A DNA stretch of 64,000 nt from Desulforapulum autotrophicum (GTDB lineage Bacteria > Desulfobacterota > Desulfobacteria > Desulfobacterales > Desulfolunaceae): positions 15,074 to 79,073 of the forward strand of contig DYJE01000019.1 of the NCBI GenBank assembly GCA_020723285.1, read 5' to 3'. The notes under the pieces were generated by a model, which worked only from the letters and a program-made list of their open reading frames with translations, was not told the DNA's origin and made no database searches. The position numbers and the translations under genes are program-made. Numbering within the stretch: the first letter of the stretch is position 1; every line of letters begins with the position of its first letter. Shown here in pieces: positions 32,004-50,864 of this stretch.

Positions 32004-32102
32004 TTACGGGGTCAGTTTTTCAATCCTCACCGCACAGGCCTTGAATTCCGGGGTCATGGTGTAGGGGTCCACCGCCGGATGGGTCAGCCAGTTGGCGTTA
32101 CC
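32004..32102 (-). pseudogene. fdhA: Displaced 3' end (last 32 codons) of the fdhA gene at 48240-50864
   Basis: The minus strand reads GNANWLTHPAVDPYTMTPEFKACAVRIEKLTP-stop, the canonical C-terminus of molybdopterin oxidoreductases. An in-frame TAG and AT-rich DNA lie immediately upstream. It joins onto ...MAFHFREGN of the truncated fdhA. Confidence 0.8.
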
Positions 32103-32426
32103 TATATTTTACACTTCCAAACACTTAATGTGGCCCATTACATCAAGGAGCGTATCAATGGAATTATTTCAATGTACCTGTTAATGAAGAAGGAGAAAAA
32201 TTTTTAAAGTCAATAACCAACATTGGCTGATGAGTTCAAAATCAATAATTATAAGTTATTTATCACCCCTGATTGTAATTTATACTTTATATTATACTGA
32301 AACTACAATATAATTGTATGGTTGCTAATGGTTATAGCAACGACAAACTTCTTCTGCGTTTCGCTTGATAGGTTCAGCAAAAAAAATAACCGCATTTGTG
32401 ATATTTTTAATTAATTTTTACGTTTT

Positions 32427-32440
32427 TTGATTTACGTCAA
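32427..32440 (+). promoter_or_regulatory. CRP/FNR-family (HcpR-like) box TTGATTTACGTCAA upstream of hcp
   Basis: TTGAT-N4-GTCAA palindrome, followed after exactly 22 nt by TATGTA (32463-32468), which is class-II geometry. Confidence 0.6.
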
Positions 32441-32580
32441 AGTATTTATTTGACCGGGTTTATATGTATAAAATTAAAATTTTTGATAAACTCGTTTCCG
32501 ATTTAGATATTGATGTAAATTTATCCAACACCAAAGCAGAAGATAACGGCATTCAACCCTATTAAACAAGGAGGCACGAC

Positions 32581-34242
32581 ATGTTTTGTTTTCAATGTCA
32601 GGAAACCATGAAAAACACCGGTTGCACATCTAAAGGTATGTGTGGAAAACCGGAAGAAACCGCCAATCTTCAGGATCTGCTGATTTTTGTCATGAAAGGC
32701 ATCGCGGTTTATTCCGAGAAATTGAACGAACTGGGGGCAGCAGATCGCAGCAACGACTTGTTCGTTGCCCAGGGCCTGTTTGCCACCATCACCAACGCCA
32801 ACTGGGCTGACGCACGGTTCGTCGAACTGATCGAAGAGGGTTTGAATCGCCGGGACAAGGCCAGAGCCGATTTTTTCGCGGCGCATAAAGCCAAAAACGG
32901 CAAGGATTTTGACGGGGCGCTTCCGGAAGCGGCCGTCTGGACCGGGGATGCGGCGGCGTTCGCGGAAAAGGCGAAACAGGTGGGAATCCTGGCCACGGAA
33001 AACGACGATGTGCGTTCATTACGTGAACTTTTAACCATCGGACTCAAAGGCGTTGCCGCTTATGCGGAACATGCCGCTGTTCTGGGTTATCAGAAACCGG
33101 AAATCAATGATTTCATCATGCAGGCACTGGCATCCACCACCAAAGACCTCTCCGTGGATGACATGATTTCCCTGGTGATGAAATGCGGCGAAACAGCCGT
33201 AACCACCATGGCTCTGCTGGATGAGGCAAACACCAGCACCTACGGCCATCCCGAAATCACCGAGGTCAACATCGGGGTGAGAAAAAACCCGGGCATCCTG
33301 ATCTCCGGCCATGATCTCAAGGATATGGACGAGCTGCTCCGGCAGACCCAAGGGACGGGTGTGGACGTGTACACCCACGGAGAAATGCTTCCGGCCAACT
33401 ATTATCCGGCGTTCAAAGCATACGATCATTTTGTGGGCAATTACGGAGGGTCTTGGTGGCATCAGAACGAGGAATTTGAATCGTTCAACGGGCCGATTCT
33501 CCTGACCACCAACTGTCTTATTCCCTTGAAAAAAACAAACACCTATCTGGACCGTCTGTATACCACCGGTATTGTGGGTTACGACGGAGCCGCCCATGTG
33601 GCTGACCGCCCGGCCGGAGGGACCAAAGATTTTTCAGCTCTGATCAGCAAAGCCAAAAGCTGTGCAGCTCCCACAGAGCTTGAAACAGGAAGCATCACCG
33701 GCGGTTTTGCCCACAACCAGGTGCTGGCCCTGGCCGACAAGGTGGTTGACGCGGTCAAATCCGGTGCCATCAAACGATTCGTGGTTATGGCCGGATGTGA
33801 CGGACGACACAAAACCCGGAGTTATTTTACGGAAGTCGCGGAAAACCTTCCCAAAGACACAGTGATCCTCACCGCAGGCTGCGCCAAATACCGTTACAAC
33901 AAACTGGCCCTGGGTGACATTGGCGGAATTCCCCGTGTTCTGGATGCCGGGCAGTGCAACGACAGCTATTCCCTGGCCGTGATCGCCCTGAAACTCAAGG
34001 AAGTGTTCGGTCTCGCCGACATCAACGAACTGCCGATTTCCTTTGATATTGCCTGGTACGAACAGAAAGCCGTGGCGGTCCTTCTGGCCCTTCTGTTTCT
34101 CGGGGTGAAAGGCATCCGGCTGGGTCCCACACTTCCGGCTTTCCTGTCTCCCACGGTGGCTGGTGTTCTTGTGGAAAAGTTCAACATCAAACCCATCGGA
34201 ACCGTGGAAGAAGATATCGCGGCCATGATGGCGGGAAAATAA
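32581..34242 (+). CDS. hcp: Hybrid-cluster protein (hydroxylamine reductase)
   Basis: N-terminal MFCFQCQET...GCT..GMCGK cluster motif, 553 aa, strong RBS AAGGAGG. Confidence 0.95.
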
Positions 34243-34266
34243 CCCAAACATATTGAAATAAAATAG

Positions 34267-34306
34267 TCCGCAGGTGAAACCAGGATTATGACCCTTCACC
34301 TGCGGA
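34267..34306 (+). terminator. 12-bp-stem hairpin after hcp
   Basis: TCCGCAGGTGAA ... TTCACCTGCGGA. No clear T-tract follows. Confidence 0.4.
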
Positions 34307-34456
34307 TCACACAGTGAAAAAAGTTTGTTTAGCCAACACGTGGCGAAAACATCACCCTCCGGATCAACCGACCCGCTCTTCCTGAGTTTTTTTACGGTCA
34401 TCGATGACCCTTAAAACGATCTATAAAAACGCCACATTTTCAAGGAGGTATTTGCC

Positions 34457-36697
34457 ATGGCAAATCCACGTTTCAGGGCTTTTTTTCTTTTTGTCCTCGT
34501 TCTGACCTTCGGGGTCTTGATTTTCGGAGGTTATCTGATCAACAAGGAAAAACCCCCCATTCCCCAAACGGTGGTATCGTCTGACGGCACGGTGCTGTTT
34601 ACAGGCGAAGACATCATCAACGGACAGAACTATTATTTCAGCCGGGGCGGTCAGCATATCGGGACCATCTGGGGCCACGGTTCCTATCTGGCTCCTGACT
34701 GGTCCGCGGACTTTCTCCACCGGATGGGAATTTTTCTGGCGGGTCGTTATCACGGTCTATCACCTGAACAGGCCGGAACATTTTCCCAGTCTGATTTTGA
34801 AGCCCTTGATCCGGTTGAACAGGCGCGGCTCAAGGCTCAGGTGATATCCGAAATCAAGACCAATCGTTATGACGGGCAAAAAGAGGTCCTGACCTTCACG
34901 CCGTTTCAGGCGGAAGCCATGAATGCGCTGACAGCTTACTACACAGCGCTGTTCCGTGAAGGAAACGAGCGAATGGGCCTGCAACCGGGCATCGTCCGCA
35001 GCGATGAAGAGGGACGGCGCGTGTCTTCTTTCTTTGCCTGGCTGGCCTGGGCCGCCGGAACCCTCAGACAAGGGACGGACCATACCTATACCACCAACTG
35101 GCCCTATGATCCCCTGGTGGGCAACGAACCCCTTCCGGACTTCGTAATCTGGTCCATCGTGAGCGTTGTCCTTTTGATTCTAGGCATTGCGGCTTCGCTT
35201 TTCGTCTATGTCCGTTACATCGGAAGGGACGATGAAAAAACCGTCCTGGTCAGGGATTTTCCTGAACCCACACCCACACCCAGCCAGAAAGCCACCCTTT
35301 TCTACTTTATCACCGCCATCGCCCTTTTCCTTCTTCAGATCGGACTGGGTGCCGCAACTGCCCATTACACAGTGGAAGGCACCCATTTTTACGGGATTCC
35401 CCTTGGCGGTATTCTGCCCTATGCGGCGGTAAGGACCTGGCATCTGCAACTGGGGCTTTTCTTCATCGCCACCTGTTTTCTGGCCGCAGGCCTTTTTATC
35501 GGGCCGTTTGTAGGCAAAGAGCCCAAGGGGCAGGGAACCTGGGTGGTGATCCTTTTTGCCGCCGTTGTCGTGGTGGTTTTGGGGACTCTGGGCGGGACCT
35601 GGTTGTCGGTTACCGGATCATTCGGAGACCAGGGATTTTATCTTGGTCATCAAGGTTATGAATTCATCGAATTGGGGAGGGTCTGGCAGTTGCTCCTCAT
35701 CGTGGGCATGATCATCTGGCTGATTCTGGTGTTCAGGGCCATCCGACCGGCCATTGCCGGGGAAGCGGACAGCGGCGGGCTCACACACATGCTGCTTTAC
35801 AGTTCCGTCACTATCCCGCTTTTCTACATGGCCGGATTATTGTACGGCAAAGGGAGTCACCTGTCAGATGCGGAATACTGGCGCTGGTGGGTGGTTCATC
35901 TGTGGGTGGAAGGTTTTTTTGAAGTGTTCGCCACCGTAATCATGGCGTTCCTCCTGTCCCACATCGGAGCGGTCAGTAAAAAATTCGCACTGACCACCAT
36001 TTATTTTACTGTGTTCCTTTATCTTGGAAGCGGCGTTCTCGGCACGTTCCATCATCTTTACTGGACCGGCGCACCCACAGCCATCATCGCCCTGGGCGCG
36101 GTGTTTTCCGCTCTCGAAGTGGTCCCGCTTTCCCTTCTGGGGTTCGAGGCTGCCCACAACCTTCGGGTGATCCAAGAGGGTGGGAAAGGCTACGCTTATA
36201 AATGGCCCATCTACTTTTTTGTGTCCGTGTCGTTCTGGAACCTTTTGGGGGCCGGGGTTTTCGGTTTTCTCATCAACCCGCCCGTGGTTCTGTACTATGC
36301 CCAGGGCATCAACACCACGCCCATCCATTCCCATGCCGCCCTGTTCGGAGTATACGGTCTTTTGGCCATTTCCCTGCTTCTTTTTTCCGTCCGCCATATC
36401 GTAACCAGGGCCTCCTGGTCGGACACACTTCTCAAATGGAGTTTCTGGGGCTTGAACGGCGGACTGGCCTGTATGCTGGTTTTCAGTCTGATTCCATCAG
36501 GATTCTATCAGCTTTATTACGCCGTCAAATACGGCCTGTGGTTTGCTCGCAGTCCTGAAATCGCTTCAGGCCCGGTGATCCGGACCTTAAGCTGGTGCCG
36601 CATGGTTCCGGACATGATTTTTGCTGCGGGGGCATTTTTGCTTTTCGCGTTTCTTGCCCGGGCTGTCTGGTTTAGTTTTTTCAGAAAACAGATATGA
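34457..36697 (+). CDS. norZ: Quinol-dependent nitric-oxide reductase large subunit (qNOR, NorZ/NorB-type)
   Basis: 746 aa with an N-terminal TM plus periplasmic extension, then a 12-TM haem-copper-oxidase core containing HLWVEGFFEVF and HHLYW motifs. Confidence 0.85.
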   Translation: MANPRFRAFFLFVLVLTFGVLIFGGYLINKEKPPIPQTVVSSDGTVLFTGEDIINGQNYYFSRGGQHIGTIWGHGSYLAPDWSADFLHRMGIFLAGRYHGLSPEQAGTFSQSDFEALDPVEQARLKAQVISEIKTNRYDGQKEVLTFTPFQAEAMNALTAYYTALFREGNERMGLQPGIVRSDEEGRRVSSFFAWLAWAAGTLRQGTDHTYTTNWPYDPLVGNEPLPDFVIWSIVSVVLLILGIAASLFVYVRYIGRDDEKTVLVRDFPEPTPTPSQKATLFYFITAIALFLLQIGLGAATAHYTVEGTHFYGIPLGGILPYAAVRTWHLQLGLFFIATCFLAAGLFIGPFVGKEPKGQGTWVVILFAAVVVVVLGTLGGTWLSVTGSFGDQGFYLGHQGYEFIELGRVWQLLLIVGMIIWLILVFRAIRPAIAGEADSGGLTHMLLYSSVTIPLFYMAGLLYGKGSHLSDAEYWRWWVVHLWVEGFFEVFATVIMAFLLSHIGAVSKKFALTTIYFTVFLYLGSGVLGTFHHLYWTGAPTAIIALGAVFSALEVVPLSLLGFEAAHNLRVIQEGGKGYAYKWPIYFFVSVSFWNLLGAGVFGFLINPPVVLYYAQGINTTPIHSHAALFGVYGLLAISLLLFSVRHIVTRASWSDTLLKWSFWGLNGGLACMLVFSLIPSGFYQLYYAVKYGLWFARSPEIASGPVIRTLSWCRMVPDMIFAAGAFLLFAFLARAVWFSFFRKQI

Positions 36698-36736
36698 TCG
36701 AAGAGTTCTAAAGGGTTGGAAGATTGTAATACAAAG

Positions 36737-36769
36737 CCATGGGAGGCCACTTTACAGGACCTTCCATGG
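36737..36769. terminator. Hairpin between convergent norZ and nrfA
   Basis: CCATGGGAGG ... CCTTCCATGG, a 10-bp stem with one G-U pair. Confidence 0.35.
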
Positions 36770-36779
36770 CATGCCGCAA

Positions 36780-38402
36780 CTAATGAGTCTGCGTGTTTAT
36801 GGGTGTTGCGGATTTGGACGCTGTTTCATGACCGTCCGGCACTGATTTGACAGAGGCCTTTCCGATCTTCTTGTTCAGATCCCACATCAAAGGTGTCTTG
36901 GGCGATAGCGGAATATACTTGAACCAGGGATGTGTCGTCATGTGTTTCGGATCCATCTGGAGTTCCCGGCTGTGTTTCAGAATCGGGGGCACCCGGGTTT
37001 TGATATCTTCACTGATGGACTTGGCTATGGTGAACGATGTGGCTTTAACCGCCGTGTCCACGGCATTCTGGCTGAAACGCTGCGATGAGGCCAGGGTATC
37101 AAGTGCTTTTGAGGGATTGTGGAACCCCACACTGTTTTCAGCGGATACAAGATCCCAGAAAAATTGGCCTTTACGGCACCATTTTCTCGCATTTGTCATC
37201 AACTCGTTGTAATTATCAGGCCTTGGTCCTTTGTATTCTGATGCCATGCGAATGGCTTCATGGGCTTTGACAGAAATCTCCTGGGCCGCCAGAAGTTGAT
37301 TCCATACCTTGTTCTGGGTATAGAGTACACGTTGTTTCAAAAATTCAGGGGTTTTGTCCGTATGACACTGACGGCATGCGTTCATTTCAGGATCTTTCAA
37401 TGGAGACGTCCAGTGGTGATTGGATATTTTCTTTTTTCCGTCAAGGCGTGTGTAGCTCATATGACAATCGGCGCAGGTTACACCTGCTGAGCCATGAACA
37501 CCGTTAGACCACGTTTCGTATTCCGGGTGCTGGGCTTTCAGCATGGGAGTCTGTGACACCGGATGTACCCAATCGACGAAGTACCCTTCAAATCCCGGTG
37601 TTTTATTGTCTCCCTTATCAGAATAGTAGTTATACATGTCTTCAGGGTCCATTCCGTCTTTCCACGGGAACACAACCTTTTTGTACGGTCCGAAACTCTT
37701 GTCCTGAAAATAGTATTCCACATGGCACTGACCACAAACCAAGGCCCGTTGTTCATTTCTTGGGAGTTTTTCAAATTCCTTGTTCTGGCTTTTCAAATAA
37801 TCCTTCAACGGCACACTGTACAGATTAAGGGCCATGGTCTTTGGATCATGACAGTTGGCGCAACCGATGGTGTCGTCGTCCAGATCGACTTTTTCCCGGA
37901 ACTGATTGAAATCTTTCGCCCAGAAATCATCGCCCTCTTCTTTGAGAAAAGTGTTCATTTTGGCGGTCTTGCAGTTCATGCACGTAGCCGGAAGGCCCGC
38001 TTTTTCGCTATATCTATTGACCCGGTCAATGCTTAAAATATCTTTCATGGCATGGGTGTGGCCTCGCGCTTCACGGTATTCATAACTGAACGGATACCCA
38101 AGCCAGAGGTTTTTTAAATAAGGCTGAGCGTGTTTATACCCTTCGGGGAGAGGATTGACATTGTCATGTTTGTTGTATGGAACCGAACCCTTATACTCGG
38201 TCATGATCTCTGATTCGTTATTCCTTAGATACGTTTCATACTGAAAAGGGAAAAGGGCCTGAAAGGCTGAATTTCTGATTTCATCTGTATTCAAATTGGT
38301 GCTGTAGGTTGGGGGAATGGGTTCATTGGCTTTTGAACAACCTCCCAGGGTCGCCATCAGCAAAACACATAAGAACAAAACGATCATTCGAAGATTACAC
38401 AT
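36780..38402 (-). CDS. nrfA: Pentahaem cytochrome c nitrite reductase NrfA
   Basis: CMNCK (the Lys-ligated catalytic haem signature) plus CANCH, CGQCH, CADCH and CRQCH. Lipobox-like LGGCS. The start at 38402 or 38387 is ambiguous, and the track ORF extends to 38450. Confidence 0.9.
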   Translation of the reverse strand: MCNLRMIVLFLCVLLMATLGGCSKANEPIPPTYSTNLNTDEIRNSAFQALFPFQYETYLRNNESEIMTEYKGSVPYNKHDNVNPLPEGYKHAQPYLKNLWLGYPFSYEYREARGHTHAMKDILSIDRVNRYSEKAGLPATCMNCKTAKMNTFLKEEGDDFWAKDFNQFREKVDLDDDTIGCANCHDPKTMALNLYSVPLKDYLKSQNKEFEKLPRNEQRALVCGQCHVEYYFQDKSFGPYKKVVFPWKDGMDPEDMYNYYSDKGDNKTPGFEGYFVDWVHPVSQTPMLKAQHPEYETWSNGVHGSAGVTCADCHMSYTRLDGKKKISNHHWTSPLKDPEMNACRQCHTDKTPEFLKQRVLYTQNKVWNQLLAAQEISVKAHEAIRMASEYKGPRPDNYNELMTNARKWCRKGQFFWDLVSAENSVGFHNPSKALDTLASSQRFSQNAVDTAVKATSFTIAKSISEDIKTRVPPILKHSRELQMDPKHMTTHPWFKYIPLSPKTPLMWDLNKKIGKASVKSVPDGHETASKSATPINTQTH

Positions 38403-38874
38403 CAGCAGCGCTCCTTTTCGCAATGGGGATTTTAGGACTGTGTGGAACATGACGGTGGCAATCCGTACAATGTGCTTTAGACTGCATATTCACTTCTTTG
38501 ACCACGGTGGAATGGCACCGGAGGCAGTTTTCCTGAACAACCTCCATCGTGTTTTTTCCGGGATGAATGTAATCGGGAACCTGTTTTGTGGCTGTCACAA
38601 ACATGTCCCTTGCACCTTCTTTGGTTTTAAAAGGGATTTTCCGGATTATATCATGTGGCGCATGACATTCGTTGCAGGCCTGTTTACTGTGAACAGATTT
38701 GCTGTGGGACAATGCGGCTTCCGCCATGGAGTGGCATCCGCCGCAGAATGCCGCCTGGTCCGTTGCTGTCATGGCGCGGGCTGAACACAAGGTGATCACA
38801 GCACCTGCCGCAAACGGCAACAGAATCAAAAGCCAGGCCTTTTCTCCCTTCATTTTCTTCCATGATAATGCCAT
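38395..38874 (-). CDS. nrfH: NapC/NirT-family tetrahaem quinol dehydrogenase NrfH
   Basis: One TM helix and four CXXCH motifs (CGGCH, CNECH, CLRCH, CTDCH). The ATG at 38874 is preceded by AGGAGG. Confidence 0.9.
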   Translation of the reverse strand: MALSWKKMKGEKAWLLILLPFAAGAVITLCSARAMTATDQAAFCGGCHSMAEAALSHSKSVHSKQACNECHAPHDIIRKIPFKTKEGARDMFVTATKQVPDYIHPGKNTMEVVQENCLRCHSTVVKEVNMQSKAHCTDCHRHVPHSPKIPIAKRSAADV

Positions 38875-38959
38875 GGAGCCTCCTTTGTTTTGTTTGAAAC
38901 AATCAGGATTCCTACGAAATACAACCAAACAACCACCAACTGCTATAACACCTTGAATC

Positions 38960-39655
38960 TTAGTGCGGGAGCATAAGCCCGCAAAGAACATCGTGCATCA
39001 CCCGGTTGATACGTTCAAACCGTTCAGGCTCTGAAAGTATTTCATGTTCAGCCTGGACAAAATAACTCCCATCCAGATCGGACCCGCAATGGTTTATCAA
39101 AGCCCTTGCCGATTCCATGGTCGTTTCCAGATGAAACTGTAACCCCACAATTCGGTTATCTTTGATAAACCCCTGATGGTCACAGGCCATGCTCGACGCA
39201 AGCGGCGTGGCTCCTTGGGGGATTTCAAACCGGTCTCCATGCCAGTGAAACACATTGAGCTTTTCAGGAAAGCATCCCGCCAGTACCGTATTGGAGATCC
39301 TGGGATCGATGGATAGTGGAAACCATCCAATTTCCCGGTGTTTGTTTTTAGTGACGGATGCGCCCATCACCTCTGCGATCAACTGGGCTCCAAGACAGAT
39401 GCCCAGAATCATTTTCCCGCGAGCAATGGCGTGTTTGATGAAGATTTTTTCATCATGCAAAAAGGGGTATTCTTTTTCGTCGTATACCCCCATGGGGCCA
39501 CCCATGATGATGAGAAAATCAAACGCATCCATATCCGGCAGGCGGTCGCCTCGGTACATATGGCTCGATGTCATCTCATGGTGGCCTGATAAAAAAAATG
39601 GTTCCATACTCCCAAGGTCTTCAAAGGGAACGTGTTGCAGATGATGGACACGCAT
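38960..39655 (-). CDS. Class I glutamine amidotransferase-like protein
   Basis: Nucleophile elbow GICLGAQL and a later FHLE His/Glu region. Confidence 0.7.
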   Translation of the reverse strand: MRVHHLQHVPFEDLGSMEPFFLSGHHEMTSSHMYRGDRLPDMDAFDFLIIMGGPMGVYDEKEYPFLHDEKIFIKHAIARGKMILGICLGAQLIAEVMGASVTKNKHREIGWFPLSIDPRISNTVLAGCFPEKLNVFHWHGDRFEIPQGATPLASSMACDHQGFIKDNRIVGLQFHLETTMESARALINHCGSDLDGSYFVQAEHEILSEPERFERINRVMHDVLCGLMLPH

Positions 39656-39739
39656 ATCGAATTCCTTTCATATGTTTTAATGGTTTGGCTGAATATGTTC
39701 ATGAGTCCACCGAAGCTTTCGTGCCCATGTATATCATAT

Positions 39740-40303
39740 TTACACTTTTTTTCGGTATAAATCAGGGTAAAGTTTCATCGCACACTCGCGACAAAGCCCA
39801 TGGCTAAAATCGGCTTCGGAGTGTTTTTTAATATACCCTTCCATTCGGCTCCAATGCCCCTCTTCATCCTTTATGCGTTTGCATGATGAGCAAATCGATA
39901 ATAGCCCGCTCAAAATTTTGATATCTTCCAGGGCCTTTTCCCTCTGAAGAACTTCTATCTCCCTTTTTTGTTCAATCGTTTTTCTATGAAGTCCTATGGA
40001 GGCCGTTACCCATATTGCCAATAAAGAAATGGCCCTGTTGAAAATGACTTTCCACATGTCTGAGACCTGGGGTTTGTAAAAACACATGCCAATGGTAAAA
40101 AGGGATGAAATTACAGTAACAAAAATTGTAAACTCTTTTCGGGGTGCCCACAGAGAAAACAAGACAGCCACAATATAGAGTACTCCAACAGCAACACCAA
40201 GAGGAATGATGGCATCAAGAGACATAATAAAAATGATATAAAAAAAGCATATAAAATAAATTGAATAGTCGTTAAGGATTTTTTTGAGTCTCTGGACTGG
40301 CAT
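39740..40303 (-). CDS. 4-TM membrane protein with coiled coil and C-terminal CxxC...H...CxxC module
   Basis: Four hydrophobic helices, then ICSSCKRIKDEEGHWSRMEGYIKKHSEADFSHGLCRECAMKLY. Confidence 0.6.
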   Translation of the reverse strand: MPVQRLKKILNDYSIYFICFFYIIFIMSLDAIIPLGVAVGVLYIVAVLFSLWAPRKEFTIFVTVISSLFTIGMCFYKPQVSDMWKVIFNRAISLLAIWVTASIGLHRKTIEQKREIEVLQREKALEDIKILSGLLSICSSCKRIKDEEGHWSRMEGYIKKHSEADFSHGLCRECAMKLYPDLYRKKV

Positions 40304-40370
40304 GGATACCCCACCCTGTTTGAAATTTGATGTTCTTCACACTTTTTCAGATTAAGCACGCGCCACTTTT

Positions 40371-41423: not shown

Positions 41424-41472
41424 GTCAATATCCTTTTGACCGTTATTTCATTCGTTCCATAGATTTTAACCG

Positions 41473-42009: not shown

Positions 42010-42021
42010 GGCTGATTCCTT

Positions 42022-42630: not shown

Positions 42631-42740
42631 GTTTATCCTTTTTAAGTTTTTTCCAATTTGGAGTTTGGTTTTTTTAGTAGAAGCGTCATAATTCAACAAT
42701 AATGCACGGTAGATCATAGTCGCATTAGCTTGTATTGTAT

Positions 42741-42905: not shown

Positions 42906-43598
42906 CTAATGATGGTTGAATATTATTTTCAATACCTTTGGAATAAAAAAAGAACCGATAAAAAGAAATACCGATAAGAAGACGTTCCAGTTCAAAAGGC
43001 CGCTCAGGTCACCGCTGGCTAAAACGTTTTTAACCGTCCCCACGAAAAAAGTGAACACAAAAGTCCCCACGATAATCCCCAGAGCCGTTCCCGCAGTGTA
43101 ATCCCTGAAACGGACTTTTGTGAGGCCCATGCCGAAGTTCATGGGCGTGAAAGGGAAATACACCAGACGAAGGTAAAGAACCGTGGCAAAACCGTTGCGT
43201 TCAATGGCGTCGTCGTACTGTTTCAGTTTTCCGCCGATGAGGCTTTCCGCGAAATCCCGGCCCAGGTAACGCCCGATGAAAAAGGCGAGGCTTGCGCCGA
43301 TCATGGCCCCGGTCCAGACCCAGAGGAACCCCCAATAAGGGCCGAACACGGCAGCCCCGATGGCGGCGAGCAGGGTGCCCGGAAGAAAAAGGCAGACCCC
43401 CGCCGCATAAATCAGGACATAAACAAGGGGAGCCCACAACCCGGCAGAGTCAAGAAGAAGGGCGAGCCGTTCTGCCGTCACATGGTTTTTAAGGGGTGAA
43501 AAACGGAGCAGCGTCACCGCCGCGATCATAAAGCAAACGAGAAGCGCCGCTTTGATCCATGGCCGTTTGGCCCTTTGTTTCACATTGAGATCAGGCAT
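42906..43598 (-). CDS. TVP38/TMEM64 (DedA-related) family membrane protein
   Basis: Multi-TM protein whose sequence (FLPGTLL, GRYLGRDF) I recognise as typical of the family. Confidence 0.7.
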   Translation of the reverse strand: MPDLNVKQRAKRPWIKAALLVCFMIAAVTLLRFSPLKNHVTAERLALLLDSAGLWAPLVYVLIYAAGVCLFLPGTLLAAIGAAVFGPYWGFLWVWTGAMIGASLAFFIGRYLGRDFAESLIGGKLKQYDDAIERNGFATVLYLRLVYFPFTPMNFGMGLTKVRFRDYTAGTALGIIVGTFVFTFFVGTVKNVLASGDLSGLLNWNVFLSVFLFIGSFFIPKVLKIIFNHH

Positions 43599-43610
43599 TA
43601 TGGGCCGCCT

Positions 43611-43928
43611 TTATTTTCCAAGAATTCGGTTCAAAAGCCCTTTTTTTTCGAGATGGGGTTCGGGAAGCCCGAGATGTCGGCAGATGCAGACTTCGACCTC
43701 GTGTTCGGAGATGTCGGCCCCTTCGACAACGACTTCGTCCCCCACCATGACCGCCGGGGCTACCGGAAGATCCAGATCGAAGTATTCGTCAGTCTGGTAC
43801 TCATCCTTGGGTTTGGATGTCACGGTGATGTCAACGTCATACTTTCCGCCCAGCCTGGGCATCATCTTTTTGAAGTTCTTTCAAGGTCTTCCGTTGGGTT
43901 CATTCAGAAAAAAACGGATATTCAGCAT
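43611..43928 (-). CDS. Candidate small thioredoxin-fold selenoprotein (in-frame TGA at 43881-43883)
   Basis: Strong RBS AAGGAGAACACC-ATG at 43928. Reads MLNIRFFLNEPNGRP-U-KNFKKMMPRL... in frame with the track ORF 43611-43865, which itself has no RBS. The C-terminal LPVAPAVMVGDEVVVEG resembles the cis-Pro/beta3-beta4 region of small thioredoxin-like proteins. Confidence 0.6.
43848..43860 (-). other. SECIS-like hairpin GCCCA-GGC-UGGGC, 20 nt after the UGA
   Basis: Read directly from the minus strand. Confidence 0.4.
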
Positions 43929-43940
43929 GGTGTTCTCCTT

Positions 43941-45704
43941 TTATGGTTTTGTGCTTTCTTTCGAAATGCGGTTCATGTGGACCAGGAATTTTTCAGGGGG
44001 TAAATAATCCACCAGCCTCAGATCATTTCGTTCCTCACCGGCAGAATCGAGGAACACCAGGGTGGGGACGCCCTTGATGCCGTACTGTTTAAGCAACTGT
44101 TCGTGATTCGGATCGCCACCCTGGGTTACATCAACTTTGACCATGGTGAACGTGTCTTTTGTTTTTCTGACCACGTCGGGGTGGTGGAACGTCACCGTGT
44201 CAAGTTCGCGGCACGGGGTGCACCAGTCGGCGTAAAAATCAATGATGACAGGGCGTTTTTCTGCTGCGGCTTTTTGAAGAACAGCCTCGGAGTATGGCTG
44301 CCAGGCTACACCTGGTCCTTTCATCATCCATGCGGTGATCCACATCGAAGCGGTGATAAGACACACACAACCAGTGGCGGCTTTGACAATTGAGAACACC
44401 TTCGACCCTGTTTCTGTTTTTTCCAGCCAGCCCAGGTGAATGCCAGCGGATAATGCGAGGGCCGCAGGCAGAAGAACTTTCAGCCCTTCGGGGAGGACTG
44501 GTCGGATGAAATGGGCCGCCATGCCCACAAGAACCCAGCCCATGAGTTTTCGGACCCAGATCATCCAGCCGCCTGCGCGGGGAAGTCGTTGAAGCTGACC
44601 GGAGAAGAGGGCAAGGATGAAAAGGGGAAGCCCTAGTCCAAGGCTCAATGTGAAAAATACAAGAAAACCCATGAAGGCGCTGCCCATACCTGCCACCCAG
44701 GTCAGAAGTCCCAGCACAAAGGGACCGATGCAGGGGGCGGCAACAACGCCGATGGTCAGCCCCATGAACAGGCTTCCGAAATAGCCGCTGTACGAGCGAC
44801 CGGCCATCCGGGTCATGGCTCCGGGCAGGCGAAGTTCCCAGAATCCGAAAAGACTGGTGGAGAACAGGATGAGAAAACCAGCGACAAAAGAAAGCACCAG
44901 GGGATTCTGGAGCATTGACCCCATCAGGCCGCCGGTCAGGGCCGCAGCCACCCCAAGGATGGAATTGGTGAGGGCGAGGCCCAAAAGGTAGCAGAGGCCG
45001 TGGAGAACAAGGACAAACTGACCTGGCCTGCTGTCGGCTGTTTTGCCTCCAAAAAACGACACAGTGATGGGGATCATGGGATAGACACACGGGGTTAAAT
45101 TCAGGGCGAGACCGCCGAAAAAGATGCCCAGAAGCGTGAGAAAAAGGCCCCAGCCTTTGACAGACCTTCCGGAATACGATCCCGATGCATCTTTCGGTGA
45201 CAGGGCAAGATCCACGGGGGTTGTTCCATAGGGCATGCCACGCTGCTGCCATTCTGGGAAACCATAGGGATCGCGGTAAACGTGACGGTAACCGAGTTTA
45301 ACGGCCACACGGGCCGCCGAGTCGCTGCGGACTCATGTAAGGCCCGCTCAGTAGAACACAATGCCCCGGTTTTTGTCCGGACCCAGAAATTTCCCGAGGG
45401 ATTCAGACTTACGCCACCTGGCCCACCCGGTGGGTTCCATGGGGAAATTCACCGCGCCCTTCATGTGGCCGGTCCGGAATTCCCATTCCTGGCGAGTGTC
45501 CACCAGAAGCAAACCGGACGGATTCTCCCGGTATTTTTGAATGAGTTCGTCGGTTTTAAGGATCGTGTAGCCGCCCCTTGCCGCCTCGGCGAGCACATCG
45601 TCCCATGTGGCCTGTTTCGGTGTGGCCGGGCGCTGGATAGACCAGACGGAAGCCACCGCAACGGCCACTGCGAGTAACGTCAGTAAAAAGGATGTTTTTT
45701 TCAT
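43941..45704 (-). CDS. Candidate selenoprotein: signal peptide - rhodanese (Y-U-AGLT-U-VRS) - DsbD/CcdA membrane domain - thioredoxin fusion, with two in-frame TGA codons (45348-45350 and 45333-45335)
   Basis: Track ORFs 45348-45704 and 43941-45308 are in the same frame, separated only by TGA-GCG-GGC-CTT-ACA-TGA. The rhodanese fold continues across both TGAs (IVFY|U|AGLT|U|VRSDSAARVAVKLGYRHVYRDPYGFPEWQQRGMPY). The DsbD-beta motifs TPCVYPMIP and AAPCIGPF and the C-terminal WCTPC thioredoxin motif are present. Confidence 0.65.
45302..45316 (-). other. SECIS-like hairpin after the second rhodanese UGA
   Basis: CGGCC-CGUGU-GGCCG starting 16 nt after the UGA. It overlaps the lower stem of the previous structure, so the two are alternative folds. 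Confidence 0.35.
45311..45345 (-). other. SECIS-like stem-loop after the first rhodanese UGA
   Basis: GGGCC-UUACAU-GAGUC-CGCAGC-GACUC-GGC-GGCCC. The upper stem starts 13 nt after the UGA. Confidence 0.4.
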
Positions 45705-45730
45705 TTCATTCGGCCTCCGGATTGTTTTTT

Positions 45731-46060
45731 TTAGTGAGTCCAGTCCATGATCTTGAAATCTTCACCCAGTTTTTTTTGAACAGCATCCCGGATCATTGAA
45801 AAATGTGGGCAAGGCATACCGATTGGGTTTCCCTTTGAAATGCATGATGCAAAAACAATAGCTTCGGCCCCACGATCAACCATGAGTTTTGCCCTTTGAA
45901 TGGATCGTTTGCCTGGACATCCGCCACAACTGACAAAACCTATGATTTCAACCGGTCCGGTGGCTTCAAACGCCATTTTCCCAGTGGAAGCGACTTTAAA
46001 ATCCGTCGTACCGGGGCACATATCCTCGGTCTGTTGACACCTGATAATTCCAACTTTCAT
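45731..46060 (-). CDS. CGGC-domain protein
   Basis: VSCGGCPGKR signature plus additional conserved Cys residues. RBS AGGAGA. Confidence 0.7.
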   Translation of the reverse strand: MKVGIIRCQQTEDMCPGTTDFKVASTGKMAFEATGPVEIIGFVSCGGCPGKRSIQRAKLMVDRGAEAIVFASCISKGNPIGMPCPHFSMIRDAVQKKLGEDFKIMDWTH

Positions 46061-46063
46061 CGA

Positions 46064-46726
46064 TCATCTCCTAAGTGTATTTTCAAACAAAAGAGTCACA
46101 AAACCTTCGTCCAGCGATTCTTTTCCAAGTTCATTCATGCCTTCTGGGGGCGGTAGAATGCTGGATTGTTCCTTTCTGAACAAGAAACCGGCTTCCTCTG
46201 CCATGGCTTTGACCTCATCCCTTTGATAGAATCTGGCGTGTCTGTAAATAACATGCCCTTTCTTGCCTCTTGCGGAATGGTACAGCCCCCAGGCGCTGTT
46301 TGACGGAACAAAGCCGATGATAAGGCGTCCCCGCCTTTTGAGCACACGGCTGCATTCACGAAGCACCCGTAAAGGATCATGGAGAAAGCAGAGGGTGCAC
46401 ACCATCAGCAGTCCGTCAAAAGAAGTATCTTTGAACGGCAGGTGTTCTCCCATGGCCTGGCAGGTCATAATGCCCCTACTGGACGCGATCATTGCCATGG
46501 ATCGCGAAGGCTCCACACTATGGCCGATGCCGAATGCCTGAGCGAAACGTCCTGAACCCGAACCCACCTCCAGCCATTTTCCCGTCGGGACCCCGAGGAT
46601 CTGATTCAGGGCTTCACGTTCCTGTGAAAAAATGAAAGACCCTTTTTCAGAGTCAAACCAGTGGTCGTATTCTTCCGCAAAATCGTCAAAAGGGTTGTTC
46701 CAAATCGACATGCCGCACGATTCCAC
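46064..46726 (-). CDS. Class I SAM-dependent methyltransferase
   Basis: Motif I LEVGSGSGRF and a Methyltransf_11-like layout. The start may instead be the ATG at 46711. Confidence 0.75.
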   Translation of the reverse strand: MESCGMSIWNNPFDDFAEEYDHWFDSEKGSFIFSQEREALNQILGVPTGKWLEVGSGSGRFAQAFGIGHSVEPSRSMAMIASSRGIMTCQAMGEHLPFKDTSFDGLLMVCTLCFLHDPLRVLRECSRVLKRRGRLIIGFVPSNSAWGLYHSARGKKGHVIYRHARFYQRDEVKAMAEEAGFLFRKEQSSILPPPEGMNELGKESLDEGFVTLLFENTLRR

Positions 46727-46728
46727 GA

Positions 46729-47037
46729 TTACCCCCGTCCCCAGAGCGGATCGTCACCGAACCGTTCTTGCCAAAGTTCTTCGGGAGTCAGGTTTTCACC
46801 CACGGACACTTCGGAAAAAGAAAAACGATAATTGGCGCAGTACTCCGTGATGGTCTTGTACGCGGCCACGATCTTTCTGGTCATGTCCGCACAAGTTTCC
46901 GGGTTGTCCCGACATCGGTCCGGATGCCATTTCGCCAGCATGGCCCGGTACGCCGATTTGACGGTTTTCAGGCTGGCTGTTTCAGGAAGACCAAGGATCG
47001 TCCGCGCTTCCGTGATCTCCTGGTATTTTTTCAGCAT
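46729..47037 (-). CDS. J-domain (DnaJ-like) protein
   Basis: LGLPETASLKTVKSAYRAMLAKWHPDR, including the HPD tripeptide. Confidence 0.75.
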   Translation of the reverse strand: MLKKYQEITEARTILGLPETASLKTVKSAYRAMLAKWHPDRCRDNPETCADMTRKIVAAYKTITEYCANYRFSFSEVSVGENLTPEELWQERFGDDPLWGRG

Positions 47038-47492
47038 GATTCGTCCCGTCGTCCTTCCCGCTCAAGCTTCGATATCATAAACGTCGCGCCTCTTTGGGAC
47101 AGCCCCAGGGTTTCGGCCAGGGTTTTCACATCCAGCGAACCCTTCTCTCGCCTGAGCGAAAGGACTTCGTCCTCAAGTTCCTCGAACCAGTCCTCGAACA
47201 GGACAAGCAGGTCCGGGTCGGTTATGGCCGACAACTGCCTGGATTGGGCCACTTTGTCCACCAGACTCTGGCACATCTTTGTTGGGTCGATACCTTCGCC
47301 CATGCATTCAGCGATTCAGAGGTGGACCATTCCGGACATCTTGTCATCGCCAGAATCGTCCAGAAGATTCATGAAAAACCGAGTTGCCGCGTCTTTGTCC
47401 ATCACTGAGAAAAGCTTTTTCAGCGTACTTCCGATGTCCTTCAGCGCCTGTTCCGGGTCCATGTTTTCGACGATGTTCAGAATATTTTTCAT
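47031..47492 (-). CDS. Candidate selenoprotein with a U-x3-C motif (in-frame TGA at 47316-47318) and a winged-helix-like C-terminus
   Basis: RBS AAGGAAG precedes the ATG at 47492. 58 codons are followed by TGA and then IAEC-MGEG..., in frame with track ORF 47031-47303, which has no RBS. The gene starts 19 nt after the arsR stop. Confidence 0.6.
47284..47301 (-). other. SECIS-like hairpin GGGCGA-AGGUA-UCG(A)CCC, 14 nt after the UGA
   Basis: Read directly. It has a GGU-containing apical loop and a single bulged A. Confidence 0.4.
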
Positions 47493-47511
47493 TTTTGTTT
47501 GACTTCCTTGT

Positions 47512-47847
47512 TTAAAACGTCTTCCGTGCTTTCAACAGATCTTCCGCCACGGTGTTCAGCGACCGGATCACGTCCAGTATTTTTTTGTCTGCCAGCTCGT
47601 AAAAAACAAAAGGGCCGCTTCGTTCTACATTTAATAGAATCGACCGTTTCAATTCCTTGAGATGATGCGACACAAGAGGCTGTGAAATACCAATTTCTTC
47701 CACGATCTGACCCACGGATTTCTTGCCTTGGCCAACGTAAAGCAAAATACGTAGTCGGTTTGGATCGGAAAGGGATTTAGCCAACAGAGAAACGCATTGA
47801 AGATAATCGTCATTTAGCATTTTTGCTTTCTTGATCAAAAAAATCAT
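47512..47847 (-). CDS. ArsR/SmtB-family transcriptional regulator
   Basis: DPNRLRILLYV...VGQIVEEIGISQPLVSHHLKELK winged-HTH signature. The canonical ELCVCDL metal-binding site is absent. Confidence 0.85.
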   Translation of the reverse strand: MIFLIKKAKMLNDDYLQCVSLLAKSLSDPNRLRILLYVGQGKKSVGQIVEEIGISQPLVSHHLKELKRSILLNVERSGPFVFYELADKKILDVIRSLNTVAEDLLKARKTF

Positions 47848-47873
47848 AAGGTTGATATCAGCTTGATATAAAC

Positions 47874-47893
47874 ATATAAATATTCATTTATAT
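47874..47893. promoter_or_regulatory. Operator-like palindrome ATATAAAT-ATTC-ATTTATAT upstream of arsR
   Basis: 8-bp perfect arms, 27 nt upstream of the arsR ORF start. An adjacent TTGATAT direct repeat lies at 47852-47869. Confidence 0.35.
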
Positions 47894-48074
47894 TATTAAA
47901 CAAGCCAAGTCAATATCCTGTGGAGTTCTTCACTCCATAGAGTGATTTTGCCCTAAATTTTTAATGGAACCCAATTGAAAGATGTAAATATGCGCCGTAT
48001 AAGCAAATACTCAGGGGTTTCTCGTGAAGAGGAGTTGGTTCTGGTTCGCTAAATTTATTGTATTTCAAATGAAC

Positions 48075-48249
48075 TTTTCACACAAAGCGTGATTCGGGAT
48101 AGGAGTTTTCACGATTCCGGTGGTAAATTTCACACAAAGCGTGATTCGAAAATTAAGCTTTTACGATCACAGATTTTTTTGATAATCGGATTTGCACGAT
48201 CCGGGAAAGAGCAGTTTGCACGGCTACAACGAAAAGTTTTCACGATTCC
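48075..48249 (+). repeat. Array of seven same-orientation TTT(T/G)CAC(G/A)-type repeats at the right edge of the insert
   Basis: Copies start at 48075, 48106, 48128, 48159, 48191, 48215 and 48237, spaced 22-32 bp apart. 48075-48127 and 48128-48180 form an imperfect 53-bp tandem. The last copy supplies the new fdhA stop codon. Confidence 0.7.
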
Positions 48250-50864
48250 CAGCAGTTACCTTCCCTGAAATGAAACGCCATCCACACCATGCCGGCCGGA
48301 ACTTCGTCGGTGATCCGGGCTTTGACCGAAACAGCGCCGCGCCGTGAGGAAACCCTGATGACCTCCCCGTCGGCGATGCCCATGCGACGGGCATCATCGG
48401 CCGAGATGTCGGCGGTCTCCTCACCGAGAAGCTCGTTCAGCCCTTGGGTTCTGCCGGTCTGGGTCCGGGTGTGGTAATGGTACAGGCGTCGGCCTGTGGA
48501 GAGAACCAAGGGGTATTCCGTGTCCGGCACTTCCGCAGGCGGGGTCCACACTGCCGGGGTGATGTTGCCTTTGCCGCAGGTGAAATTCCCGTTCAGGTGG
48601 AGAATGGCCGTACCGGGGTGTTCTTTGGTCGGACAGGGCCACTGGAGGCCGTCTCCCTCGATCCGCCCAAACGTGATTCCGGCGAAAATCGGGCAGAGCG
48701 CGGCGATCTCCCTGTCCCAGATGTCCTTGGAACTGGCGGAGGTCCAGGTGTGGCCCATGCGTCTTGCAATCTCCCGGAATATCCACCAGTTGGGCCGAGC
48801 CTGGCCCGGCGCGGGACAGGCTGCCCTAACGCGGCTCACCCTGCGCTCGCAGTTGGTGAACGTGCCGTCATCCTCGCTCCAGGCCGCAGACGGAAACACC
48901 ACATGGGCGAACCGTGTGGTTTCCGTTTCGAAGATATCCTGGCAAACCAGGAATTCCGCGCTGGAGAGTTCATGTTCCACCTTGGCGATATGGGGTTCCG
49001 CGCTGGCCAGGTTTTCGCCGAAAATGTACAGCGCCCGGATCTTCTTCGTCACCAGCCCTTCGAGCATCTGGGGGATCATCAGGCCGTTTTTATCCGGAAG
49101 GTCCTGAACGTTCCATGCGTCTTCGAATTTTTTCCGGGCTGCTGCGTCGGTCACGCTCTGGTATCCGGGAAACACGTTGGGCAGCGCCCCCATGTCACAG
49201 GCTCCCTGCACGTTGTTCTGCCCGCGTAAGGGATTCACCCCGCCGCATTCCACGCCCAGGTTCCCCAGAAGCATCTGGAGATTGGCCACCGACGCCACGT
49301 TGTCGCGGCCGCAGGTGTGTTCGGTGAGGCCCAGGGTGTACATCAGCATCATGGGTTTCACCGATGCGGCCATACGGGCTGTCCTGACAATCAGATCGCT
49401 GGGAATGCCACAGATTTCAGCCGCTTTTTCCGGCGTGTAATCCATGACGGTTTCCCTGAGTTTTTCAAAGTTCACCGTGTGGTTTTCGATGAATGCCTTG
49501 TCGTACAGGTTTTCCGTGATGAGGACGCGCATCACGCCGTTCAGAAACGCGATGTCCGTGCCCACTTTGATCTGGACGAACAGGTCGGCAAACCGGGCCA
49601 GGGTGTGTTTTCTCGGATCGACCACAATCAGTTTCGCACCCTGACGCACAGCGTTCTTGACAAACGTCGACGCCACGGGATGGGCCTCGGTCATGTTGGC
49701 TCCGATGACAAAGAACATCTTGGCGTTTTTCACTTCCTTCAGGCTGTTGGTCATGGCCCCGGATCCGAAGGTGGTGGCGAGCCCGGCCACGGTGGGCGCG
49801 TGGCAGACCCTGGCGCAGTGGTCGATGTTGTTGGTCTTGAACACGGCCCTGAACAGCTTCTGCATCTGGTAGGAATCTTCGTTGATGCTCCGGGCGCAGC
49901 TGACCCCGGCCACGGCATCCGGCCCATGCTCGGCAATGATCCGTGAGAAGGTGGACGCCACAAGATCAAGGGCCTCGTCCCAGGACGCGGGTTCAAGCAC
50001 GCCGTTTGTCCGGATCAGCGGGGTTTTCAGGCGGTCTGGGGAACTGATGAAATCATAGCCGAAACGCCCTTTGACACACAGGCGGCCCTGGTTGGGTTCG
50101 GCATTTTCCACGGCTGAAATATGAACGATTTTTCCATTCTTCACATGAAGCATCTGCTGGCAGCCCACCCCGCAGTACGGGCAGGTGGTTCTGACGCTTT
50201 GGGTCTCGCACAGCCGGGGCTTCTGAAAAGCGTCTTTCGGGACCAGAGCGCCGACGGGACAGGCCTGGATGCACTGGCCGCAGAACACACAGTCCGAATC
50301 CTTGAGGGCCATGTCGCCCTTGGCGATGATTTTCGTTTTCGCCCCACGGTATCCGAAGTCGATGGCGTCGTTCACCTGGATTCCCCGGCAGGCCTGGACA
50401 CACCGGCCGCAGAGAATGCATTTGGCGAAATTGCGAACGATCAGGGGGTTTACCGCTTCCATGGGGTAGGACGTGCGGGTGTCCGGGTATCTTCCGCCCT
50501 TGACCTGATAGCGGTAAGCCAGCTCCTGAAGCCGGCAGCCTCCGGACGCCGGGCAGACGAGACAGTCGTCGTGTCTGCCTGATGAAAGCATCAGTTCGAC
50601 GATGGTCTTTCGGGACTGGATGACCACCGGGGAGTCGGTACGGACCACCATACCTTTGGCCGCCGGAACAGTGCAGGCCGTCATCAGACTTCGCGCGCCC
50701 TCGACCTCCACCACGCAGATCCGGCAGGCCCCCGTGGGTGTGGTGTCTTTCAGGTGGCAAACCGTAGGGATGTCTATACCCGCGTTGCGGGCGGCTTCAA
50801 GTATGGTCTGACCCGGACTGAACACCACGTCCCGGCCGTTGATCACCAACAGGTTTTCGCTCAT
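48240..50864 (-). CDS. fdhA: Formate dehydrogenase alpha subunit (NuoG-like Fe-S N-terminus plus molybdopterin domains), Cys-type, 3'-truncated by insertion
   Basis: 2Fe-2S and 4Fe-4S motifs at the N-terminus. The active-site region HCARVCHAPTVAGL has Cys where Sec-type enzymes have U. The protein ends ...MAFHFREGN-CWES-stop and lacks the conserved NxLT...PEFK.CAV..EK tail, which is found at 32004-32102. Confidence 0.85.
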   Translation of the reverse strand: MSENLLVINGRDVVFSPGQTILEAARNAGIDIPTVCHLKDTTPTGACRICVVEVEGARSLMTACTVPAAKGMVVRTDSPVVIQSRKTIVELMLSSGRHDDCLVCPASGGCRLQELAYRYQVKGGRYPDTRTSYPMEAVNPLIVRNFAKCILCGRCVQACRGIQVNDAIDFGYRGAKTKIIAKGDMALKDSDCVFCGQCIQACPVGALVPKDAFQKPRLCETQSVRTTCPYCGVGCQQMLHVKNGKIVHISAVENAEPNQGRLCVKGRFGYDFISSPDRLKTPLIRTNGVLEPASWDEALDLVASTFSRIIAEHGPDAVAGVSCARSINEDSYQMQKLFRAVFKTNNIDHCARVCHAPTVAGLATTFGSGAMTNSLKEVKNAKMFFVIGANMTEAHPVASTFVKNAVRQGAKLIVVDPRKHTLARFADLFVQIKVGTDIAFLNGVMRVLITENLYDKAFIENHTVNFEKLRETVMDYTPEKAAEICGIPSDLIVRTARMAASVKPMMLMYTLGLTEHTCGRDNVASVANLQMLLGNLGVECGGVNPLRGQNNVQGACDMGALPNVFPGYQSVTDAAARKKFEDAWNVQDLPDKNGLMIPQMLEGLVTKKIRALYIFGENLASAEPHIAKVEHELSSAEFLVCQDIFETETTRFAHVVFPSAAWSEDDGTFTNCERRVSRVRAACPAPGQARPNWWIFREIARRMGHTWTSASSKDIWDREIAALCPIFAGITFGRIEGDGLQWPCPTKEHPGTAILHLNGNFTCGKGNITPAVWTPPAEVPDTEYPLVLSTGRRLYHYHTRTQTGRTQGLNELLGEETADISADDARRMGIADGEVIRVSSRRGAVSVKARITDEVPAGMVWMAFHFREGNCWES

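Follow-up and report, generated by a model that had tools for sequence, protein, structure and literature searches.

The window analysed here is a 64,000-nucleotide stretch of Desulforapulum autotrophicum DNA (contig DYJE01000019.1, positions 15,074 to 79,073), in which the formate dehydrogenase gene fdhA is interrupted near its 3′ end. The interrupting DNA, referred to below as the island, is 16,151 bp long (32104-48254), lies between two copies of the heptamer GTTACCT and enters fdhA 97 bp before the stop codon. An earlier note, made by a model from the letters of this window, had described about 16 kb inserted into the 3′ end of fdhA, a displaced gene tail and GTTACCT at both junctions; each of these was found where the note had placed it. 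The features at the two edges of the island are as follows (positions are those of the window):

48240..50864, minus strand: fdhA, truncated; 874 aa, made of 870 native codons plus CWES-stop, the latter encoded by the island terminus
48255..48261, plus strand: right GTTACCT copy; 7-bp direct repeat
48076..48254, minus strand: specialised right terminus of the island, which starts TGCTGGGAATCGTGAAAAC on the minus strand
32427..32440, plus strand: palindromic box TTGATTTACGTCAA upstream of hcp
32128..32207, plus strand: relic of a PocR-domain gene, its last 26 codons (..NVAHYIKERINGIISMYLL.., then stop), with the remainder of the gene missing
32104..32127, plus strand: left terminal 24 nt of the island, ATATTTTACACTTCCAAACACTTA
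32097..32103, plus strand: left GTTACCT copy, which encodes the Gly-Asn codons of fdhA
32004..32102, minus strand: displaced fdhA 3′ fragment, 32 codons and a TAA stop, GNANWLTHPAVDPYTMTPEFKACAVRIEKLTP-stop, preceded by an in-frame stop

FdhA is of the type with a NuoG-like N-terminus and has Cys, not Sec, in its active site. The translated body ends in MAFHFREGNCWES-stop. The tail fragment contains no internal stop or frameshift, and joining body and tail without the insert and one repeat copy gives an FdhA of normal length, 900 aa, in agreement with the approximately 900 aa that the earlier note had projected. After joining, the junction reads FHFREGNANWLT, which ranks as the second commonest variant in 87 tails aligned by tblastn from 80 relative loci. 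A genome scan using the reconstituted 900-aa FdhA as query showed intact fdhA in 80/80 of these loci, matched through residues 897–900. Of the two findings that the earlier note had named as refuting its reading, neither was made: the ending GNCWES occurred in none of the aligned tails (87 tails, 80 loci), and the tail matched the same orthologue as the body, not a paralogue.

The two closest relatives (L001 and L003; 84% and ~79% amino acid identity to FdhA) show the uninterrupted arrangement: window 50878-48262 aligns to locus positions 9987-12603 and window 32097-32016 to 12610-12691, with the body and tail segments only 6 bases apart in both. The tail carries the signature AVDPYTMTPEFK, which is common only to the closest orthologues and occurs neither in the second fdhA copy of L001 nor in distant relatives; the fragment therefore belongs to this fdhA. 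L001 itself has two tandem fdhA copies (6974-9578 and 10001-12694), and the window has one, the disrupted one. A search of GTDB genomes and of a set of 5.8 billion proteins found no sister strain in which the same flanks surround an uninterrupted fdhA. Since the nearest FdhA is 84% identical and the flanks are not syntenic, the empty site is shown at the orthologue level only.

The 874-aa form of FdhA was represented in the 5.8 billion proteins by the window's own protein alone, the next best match being 84% identical and full length, and exact-protein look-ups returned no match to the truncated FdhA. The Pfam Molydop_binding match of the truncated protein ends at profile position 82/110, and the solved formate dehydrogenases 7BKB, 7QV7, 1AA6 and 6TG9 align through the tail to their own C-termini. 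The molybdopterin-dinucleotide-binding domain of FdhA is thus short of its C-terminal 30 residues, and from this we predict that the enzyme has very probably been inactivated.

GTTACCT is not a rare word in itself, with five occurrences observed in the window against 2.5 expected. The probability that it would stand precisely at the two junctions by chance, in step with the reading frame, is about 4^-7. On the coding strand of fdhA the word reads AGGTAAC, and both window copies are identical and equal to the fdhA codons. The island is thus a single precise insertion that truncates fdhA. The record is a metagenome-assembled contig, and several public assemblies break inside the island (at 42915, ~43200 and 47455), as they might if the joins between island and fdhA existed only in silico in a chimeric assembly. 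However, separately built Logan contigs of SRR13164373 (L081, 28589-42748; L084, 45309-49839) reproduce both junctions at 100% identity; their reads are probably the same as those of the deposited contig, and the assembler is different. Moreover, a 7-bp overlap is too short to mislead a k-mer assembler, and the two junctions together restore one reading frame exactly. An assembly chimera is hardly credible on these data.

If the island were excised precisely at the 7-bp repeat, fdhA would be perfectly restored. The empty site would then read GGGAAGGTAACGCCAACTGG, and the circle joint would read GTGTAAAATATAGGTAACTGCTGGGAATCG, that is, ...GTGTAAAATAT-AGGTAAC-TGCTGGG.... This property and the undamaged tail would suit a programmed intervening element of the skin (in sigK) or nifD type that excises to repair its host gene. 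The skin and nifD elements encode their own recombinase, whereas none was detected in or near the island; furthermore, the cargo consists of ordinary respiratory and detoxification operons, and 0/80 relatives carry an element at this position of fdhA. We consider a programmed element extremely unlikely.

The right end of the island has a distinctive organisation. Read from fdhA into the island, the junction is AGGTAAC followed directly by TGCTGGGAATCGTGAAAAC, so the tip of the island is TG (TGCTGGG). Behind this tip lie four strong ~19-bp direct repeats (consensus ..RATCGTGMAAAY..) at 48233, 48211, 48187 and 48102, with start-to-start distances of 22, 24 and then 85 bp, and a weak fifth repeat at 48154, 33 bp after the third; two 21-bp GAATCACGCTTTGTGTGAAA units are also present. 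With a weight matrix, the right-end repeats scored 19.6–24.9 bits, and the best site elsewhere in the 64 kb scored 13.9. A multi-site end, here a terminal 5′-TG with four strong sites and one weak site within 180 bp, was found at the right end only. Neither island end matched Rfam, and single-strand folding of the terminus was not significant (z of -0.4 and -0.2, about -0.3); attC, oriT-hairpin and HUH readings were accordingly rejected as the primary explanation. An integron gene cassette was also rejected: GTTACCT misfits the RRR of the attC motif GTTRRRY, no significant single-strand structure is present, and the island measures 16 kb against ~1 kb for a cassette. The first gene inside the right end is an arsR-like regulator, not a transposase. 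In sum, the right end is a discrete, repeat-bearing terminus.

The same terminus recurs elsewhere. ERZ27300256 (L099, L082) and JGI 3300025522 (L100, L083) contain the block 32549-48254 with its order unchanged, at 94.6–97% nucleotide identity; this is referred to here as the sibling copy. At its right end, the sibling copy (L082 type) is homologous to the island up to TGTTGGG and unrelated beyond. Outside this boundary lies a serine-recombinase remnant (NCBIfam Mpi-family invertase, E = 2.6e-19, profile positions 108-166/203), whose frame, when one frameshift in an A-run is allowed, reaches the boundary as ...KKIPAIAI/CWES-stop. As judged from this reading frame, which runs up to the boundary, the same terminus has interrupted a second, unrelated gene, that of a serine recombinase, in the sibling copy. 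The decayed Mpi-like invertase gene (L082 9352-9602) is truncated at both ends and has the frameshift in its A-run. L082 has one further inverted A+B repeat unit at 7950-7995, 1.6 kb beyond the boundary, and the two units bracket RelE/MqsA back to back.

A metagenome scan with the right terminus yielded 25 matches, mostly chance occurrences in coding sequence (L-G-I-V-K-T); the genuine ones are L109 (which is the L083 contig again), L115 and L125, and L127 is a possible fourth. The scan thereby placed the terminal 30–50 nt in two more settings. In L125, from a relative of the host genome, the terminus stands 28 nt after tatA. In L115, a kdp operon and the gene of a histidine kinase precede it, and toxin-antitoxin genes come next; no repeat motif of the kind expected in an integron-like array was found between these toxin-antitoxin genes. 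Altogether, the terminus is kept in L082-L086, L115 and L125. Upstream of the TG, no pair of the four contexts is alike, except for G-N-T-A-W-S within the preceding seven bases; the four flanking 7-mers are AGGTAAC, CGCTATC, TGATAAG and GGCTATG. The four targets (fdhA, a recombinase gene and two intergenic sites) are unrelated. A boundary shared by two contexts alone would be trivial; the cut in a second gene and the occurrence of the terminus in two further settings make it meaningful.

The sibling copy also shows where the 7 bp come from. The two element copies are 95–97% identical and differ in the 7-mer at the same terminus (AGGTAAC vs CGCTATC, 4/7 positions different). Since near-identical copies carry different flanking 7-mers, the 7 bp are derived from the target and are not an element-borne core. 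The one complete insertion with both sides available is that in the window, and the 7-bp length is atypical for the Mu/Tn7/Tn552/Tn402 group. Of the three origins that the earlier note had left open for the repeat, a target duplication is thus favoured, and a recombination core and microhomology have become less likely.

A recombination core would belong to site-specific insertion by a tyrosine recombinase in trans. The island would then be an integrase-less derivative comparable to a CIME (the term for cis-mobilisable elements; PMC9345347), the 7 bp would be the crossover overlap and the repeats would be accessory sites. Several observations fit: the island ends are asymmetric, the 7-mers of the four junctions have three invariant positions in common, and the sibling copy has conjugation genes next to it, an arrangement also seen where a conjugative element and a CIME form an accretion. 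In addition, 7 bp is the usual overlap length of tyrosine recombinases, and in L125 a short tyrosine recombinase, annotated as a site-specific integrase and related to plasmid tyrosine recombinases of ~200 aa, lies 650 bp inside the homologous terminus. However, a fixed element-borne core should agree between near-identical elements, which carry AGGTAAC and CGCTATC, and the insertions lie in four unrelated targets. Inverted core-type repeats are missing beside the 7 bp at either junction; 11-mers compared by hand match mostly at 1–3/11 positions, and at 7/11 at one junction. Because the L125 recombinase has no N-terminal domain for arm binding, the arrays probably do not serve as arm sites, and its association with the terminus is a single case. 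We therefore regard site-specific insertion as unlikely. Between the terminus and the tyrosine recombinase gene, L125 13859-14443 contains four GAATCTTAA copies, two of them in perfect palindromes (GAATCTTAAC...GTTAAGATTC), which may be the recombinase's own sites.

The left end of the island is of a different kind. Its terminal 24 nt occurred nowhere else in 1.75 Mb of retrieved loci. Their reverse complement matches the right terminus at 13/20 positions in direct, not inverted, orientation (a hand count, weakly significant). The best score for the repeat motif in the left 477 bp was 3.1 bits, against a shuffle mean of 5.4, and no inverted repeat was found between the island ends. A reading of the left end as a degenerate inverted copy of the right end was rejected because it has neither the repeat motif nor an inverted repeat, and the 13/20 match is not relied on. 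Next to the 24 nt, the PocR relic is 80–81% identical to L128 3684-3747 and L101 12320-12383. The intact L128 homologue matches Pfam PocR, and intact homologues adjoin hcp in the chromosomal contigs L128 and L101. The sibling copy diverges leftward from ~32420-32549, 320–445 bp inside the left end, and the TTGATTTACGTCAA box, which we take to be a CRP/FNR-type site, is the sole part of the hcp upstream region conserved in it. The left end is therefore not canonical. The earlier note had called both inner edges AT-rich and non-coding. They are AT-rich; they are not featureless, since the left edge holds the 24-nt stub, the gene relic and the hcp promoter box, and the right edge holds an arsR-like promoter and the direct-repeat array.

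A left end made of ordinary donor DNA, cut inside a gene, and the lack of a recombinase in cis would both be expected if no enzyme had been involved, that is, if foreign circular or linear DNA had joined fdhA by illegitimate recombination at a chance 7-bp microhomology. The donor crossover would then have fallen precisely on a terminus that forms a boundary in three further contexts as well, and the probability of this by random chance in 16 kb is below ~1/1000. A single crossover would further require a circular donor with GTTACCT precisely at its joint. Chance microhomology is accordingly quite improbable.

The interior of the island consists of two cargo modules, assigned by Pfam and NCBIfam:

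32581..42717, mixed strands: cargo module 1 (Pfam)
32581-34242, plus strand: hcp, module 1
34457-36697, plus strand: quinol NO reductase (qNor), module 1
36780-38450, minus strand: nrfA, module 1
38395-38874, minus strand: nrfH, module 1
further genes: GATase, a 187-aa membrane protein, a NapH-like Fer4 protein and an HPP protein, module 1
42022-42717, minus strand: CBS protein, module 1
42906..47847, minus strand: cargo module 2, an ArsR-regulated selenoprotein operon
47512-47847, minus strand: ArsR, head of the module 2 operon
47031-47492, minus strand: TsoA with UGA (NCBIfam), motif L-U-I-A-E-C, TGA at 47316-47318
within the module 2 operon, minus strand: DnaJ, methyltransferase and CGGC protein
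43941-45704, minus strand: rhodanese-DsbD-thioredoxin fusion, with two in-frame TGA codons five codons apart (FY-U-AGLT-U-VRS), then a GC-rich hairpin
43611-43921, minus strand: TsoC with UGA (NCBIfam), motif N-E-P-N-G-R-P-U
42906-43598, minus strand: VTT/DedA protein, module 2

Module 2 thus encodes at least three selenoproteins read through TGA. These assignments (hcp, qNor and nrfHA; TsoA, TsoC and the rhodanese-DsbD protein with in-frame TGA) bear out the NO/nitrite detoxification genes and the selenoprotein operon of the earlier note. Searches with Pfam, PHROGs and NCBIfam detected no integrase, transposase or resolvase in the island or in the rest of the 64-kb window; the note had likewise seen no integrase, transposase or terminal inverted repeat. 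Upstream of the CBS gene, window 42713-42818 is a 53-bp tandem duplication with copies 96% identical, and the related contig L090 has one copy. Directly upstream of the Cys-type fdhA, window 50898-52949 (minus strand) carries selB (50898-52823) and tRNA-Sec (52862-52949). The island with its selenoproteins has thus landed beside the host's own Sec-decoding genes, which may be a coincidence. Near the window start, an identical 19-mer, CACGAAACGGGAAAACGGG, occurs twice on the plus strand (1948-1966 and 2766-2784), ~820 bp apart.

The composition of the island differs from that of its surroundings. Its GC content is 0.491, compared with 0.543 and 0.560 in the flanks, and is lowest at 37–43 kb, in line with the lower interior GC described earlier. 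The GC content at third codon positions is 0.40–0.63 inside the island and 0.56–0.76 outside. Tetranucleotide profiling along the window, a check that the note had proposed, likewise set the island apart: the correlation between island and flanks is 0.83, compared with 0.956 between the two flanks, and 3-kb windows gave a mean of 0.76 and a minimum of 0.53 (40–43 kb) inside the island, and a mean of 0.91 and a minimum of 0.86 outside. Because its composition differs and the same block occurs at 95–97% identity in another genomic context and in other samples, the island is foreign in origin and was acquired horizontally. With intact fdhA in the relatives, this upholds the view of a horizontally acquired island that disrupted fdhA. 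The host flanks in the window (the HDOD gene and FdhA) were found in one sample only, SRR13164373. A plasmid collection contained no match to the island or the right terminus, and a viral scan gave one match, judged to be due to chance.

The island is a mosaic. The part from nrf to CBS occurs in 23 contigs from many samples at 95–98% identity, and in some of these the neighbour beyond 42915 differs. A module boundary lies inside the island at ~42915, where several public contigs (among L088, L089, L091 and L096) stop or switch neighbour; two JGI contigs both end at 47455. Beyond the module boundary, L089 runs into the C-terminal end of a gene resembling the product of window 12843-13253 (plus strand). 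This short window ORF encodes only a Fic-like C-terminal domain, shows 51% identity over 70 aa (tblastx) to the island-module flank in L089 and may be what is left of a further mobile-element gene. Contig L101, which is chromosomal, has hcp and a related ArsR...VTT operon 3.4 kb apart, in the order and orientation of the island; given this chromosomal context, the cargo resembles a captured piece of Desulfobacteraceae chromosome. The closest Hcp found elsewhere shares 92% identity.

The setting of the sibling copy is a conjugative element or plasmid. Its left neighbours are Fic, S24 peptidase, HU, a RepB-like regulator and a 348-aa protein; its right neighbours are RelE/MqsA, unknown proteins, DUF6765, a nuclease, an HTH protein, TrbI and CagX. 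The 472-, 222- and 348-aa proteins beside the sibling copy gave no useful family matches. With the terminus facing TrbI/CagX directly, one end fixed and one arbitrary, iteron-like direct repeats and G-N-T-A-W-S weakly conserved 5′ of the junction, the repeat end might be an oriT/nic-type site, and the island might be 16 kb of a leading region captured from an interrupted conjugative transfer through one relaxase join to a nic-like target and one illegitimate join. However, no relaxase was seen, the end has no significant single-strand hairpin (z ~ -0.3), and the identical 7 bp on both sides would be left unexplained. Leading-region capture is thus very improbable.

Taking the two ends together, we tentatively favour transposition in trans with one true end and one surrogate end, a reading to which we give slightly less than an even chance. 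The 16,151-bp, non-autonomous island would have entered fdhA in one event that duplicated 7 bp (AGGTAAC). The right end would be the true terminus of an undescribed mobile-element family, with the ~19-bp repeats as putative binding sites for the protein that moves the element, and the left end would be a point at which ordinary donor DNA was broken, with a 24-nt stub and then the end of the PocR gene. A cut-and-join transposase, supplied in trans by a complete relative in the cell or by an incoming conjugative element, would use the true right end and the surrogate left end and make a 7-bp staggered cut in the target, whose single-stranded gaps, once repaired, would leave the 7 bp in two copies. 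As for the cargo, hcp, qNor, nrfHA and the tso selenoprotein operon would have been assembled in Desulfobacterales chromosomes and would also travel in a conjugative-element context. Three features suggest a cut-and-join transposase: target-derived 7 bp at each side, a tip of TG and an array of closely spaced sites. The enzyme class, its action in trans and the use of a surrogate end are all inferred.

Several points weigh against this proposal. No transposase was linked to the right terminus in any context found, and the sole recombination gene beside a homologous terminus is the short tyrosine recombinase of L125, not a DDE enzyme. Mu, Tn7 and Tn402, which have multi-repeat TG ends, make 5-bp rather than 7-bp duplications, and these families seldom move in trans with a surrogate end. 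Alternatively, the direct repeats may serve as plasmid iterons, partition sites or regulator sites, and one more inverted repeat unit lies 1.6 kb outside the L082 boundary. In the sibling context, a duplicate of the flanking 7-mer was not found, the sibling's left end being outside the reachable contigs. The G-N-T-A-W-S common to the four 7-mers fits a target preference and also a recombination core. The metagenome scan pattern forced TGNTGGGAATCGTGAAAAC (TGNT), so the TG of L115 and L125 is not independent evidence.

Among known systems, ISEcp1-type units (IS1380 family) are closest in action: they use one true and one surrogate end, carry adjacent chromosomal cargo of arbitrary length and have a duplication around the whole, and the island is alike in these respects. 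However, ISEcp1 units have a transposase gene beside the true end, a 5-bp duplication and a simple inverted repeat, whereas the island has no transposase, a 7-bp duplication and a true end made of an array of four to five direct repeats. In architecture, the right end resembles the ends of Mu, Tn7, Tn552 and Tn402, which start with 5′-TG and carry several ~20-bp sites in the same orientation within 150–180 bp of the tip. These elements also carry the same sites, inverted, at the other end and encode their own transposase and AAA+ partner; the island has neither. Most of the group duplicates 5 bp, and Tn552 is an exception with 6–7 bp. Tn552 and Tn402 prefer res sites, and the insertion of the sibling copy in what remains of a serine-recombinase gene is reminiscent of this.

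CIMEs and integrase-less islands, like the present one, have no recombination or transfer genes and are bounded by short direct repeats, and the sibling copy adjoins a conjugative element; however, CIMEs keep both att sites and one constant core, whereas the 7-mers of the island vary between near-identical copies and one end is specialised. In the one-ended transposition of IS91 and IS801, a fixed start and variable stops lead to the mobilisation of neighbouring DNA (PMC3189936), and the architecture of the island is likewise one-sided. The IS91 family differs in its 4-nt target, HUH enzyme, hairpin end and lack of a duplication; the island has a 7-bp repeat and no significant hairpin, and no HUH gene was found in it. 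The insertion of an island into a gene is itself ordinary. The unusual features are the lack of any recombinase, the one-sided architecture and an undescribed repeat terminus that recurs at gene-disrupting junctions.

Beyond the single insertion, the terminus may define an undescribed Desulfobacterales family for which one true end suffices, adjacent DNA is carried along (here 16 kb), 7 bp are duplicated, the enzyme acts in trans and operons are shuttled between conjugative elements and chromosomes; we put this forward as a possibility that is still doubtful. If transposition in trans is correct, whole operons for nitrite/NO detoxification and for selenoproteins would pass between anaerobes as blocks that lack a recombinase and lie next to one mobile-element end, also inside conjugative elements, and pipelines that rely on integrases, transposases or inverted repeats would miss such islands. 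The TG...ATCGTGMAAAY repeat array would then provide a sequence handle for the family and its enzyme. For the organism, the gene content suggests a trade of functions, in which the cytoplasmic NAD-type formate dehydrogenase was most likely knocked out and tolerance to nitrite and NO would have been gained.

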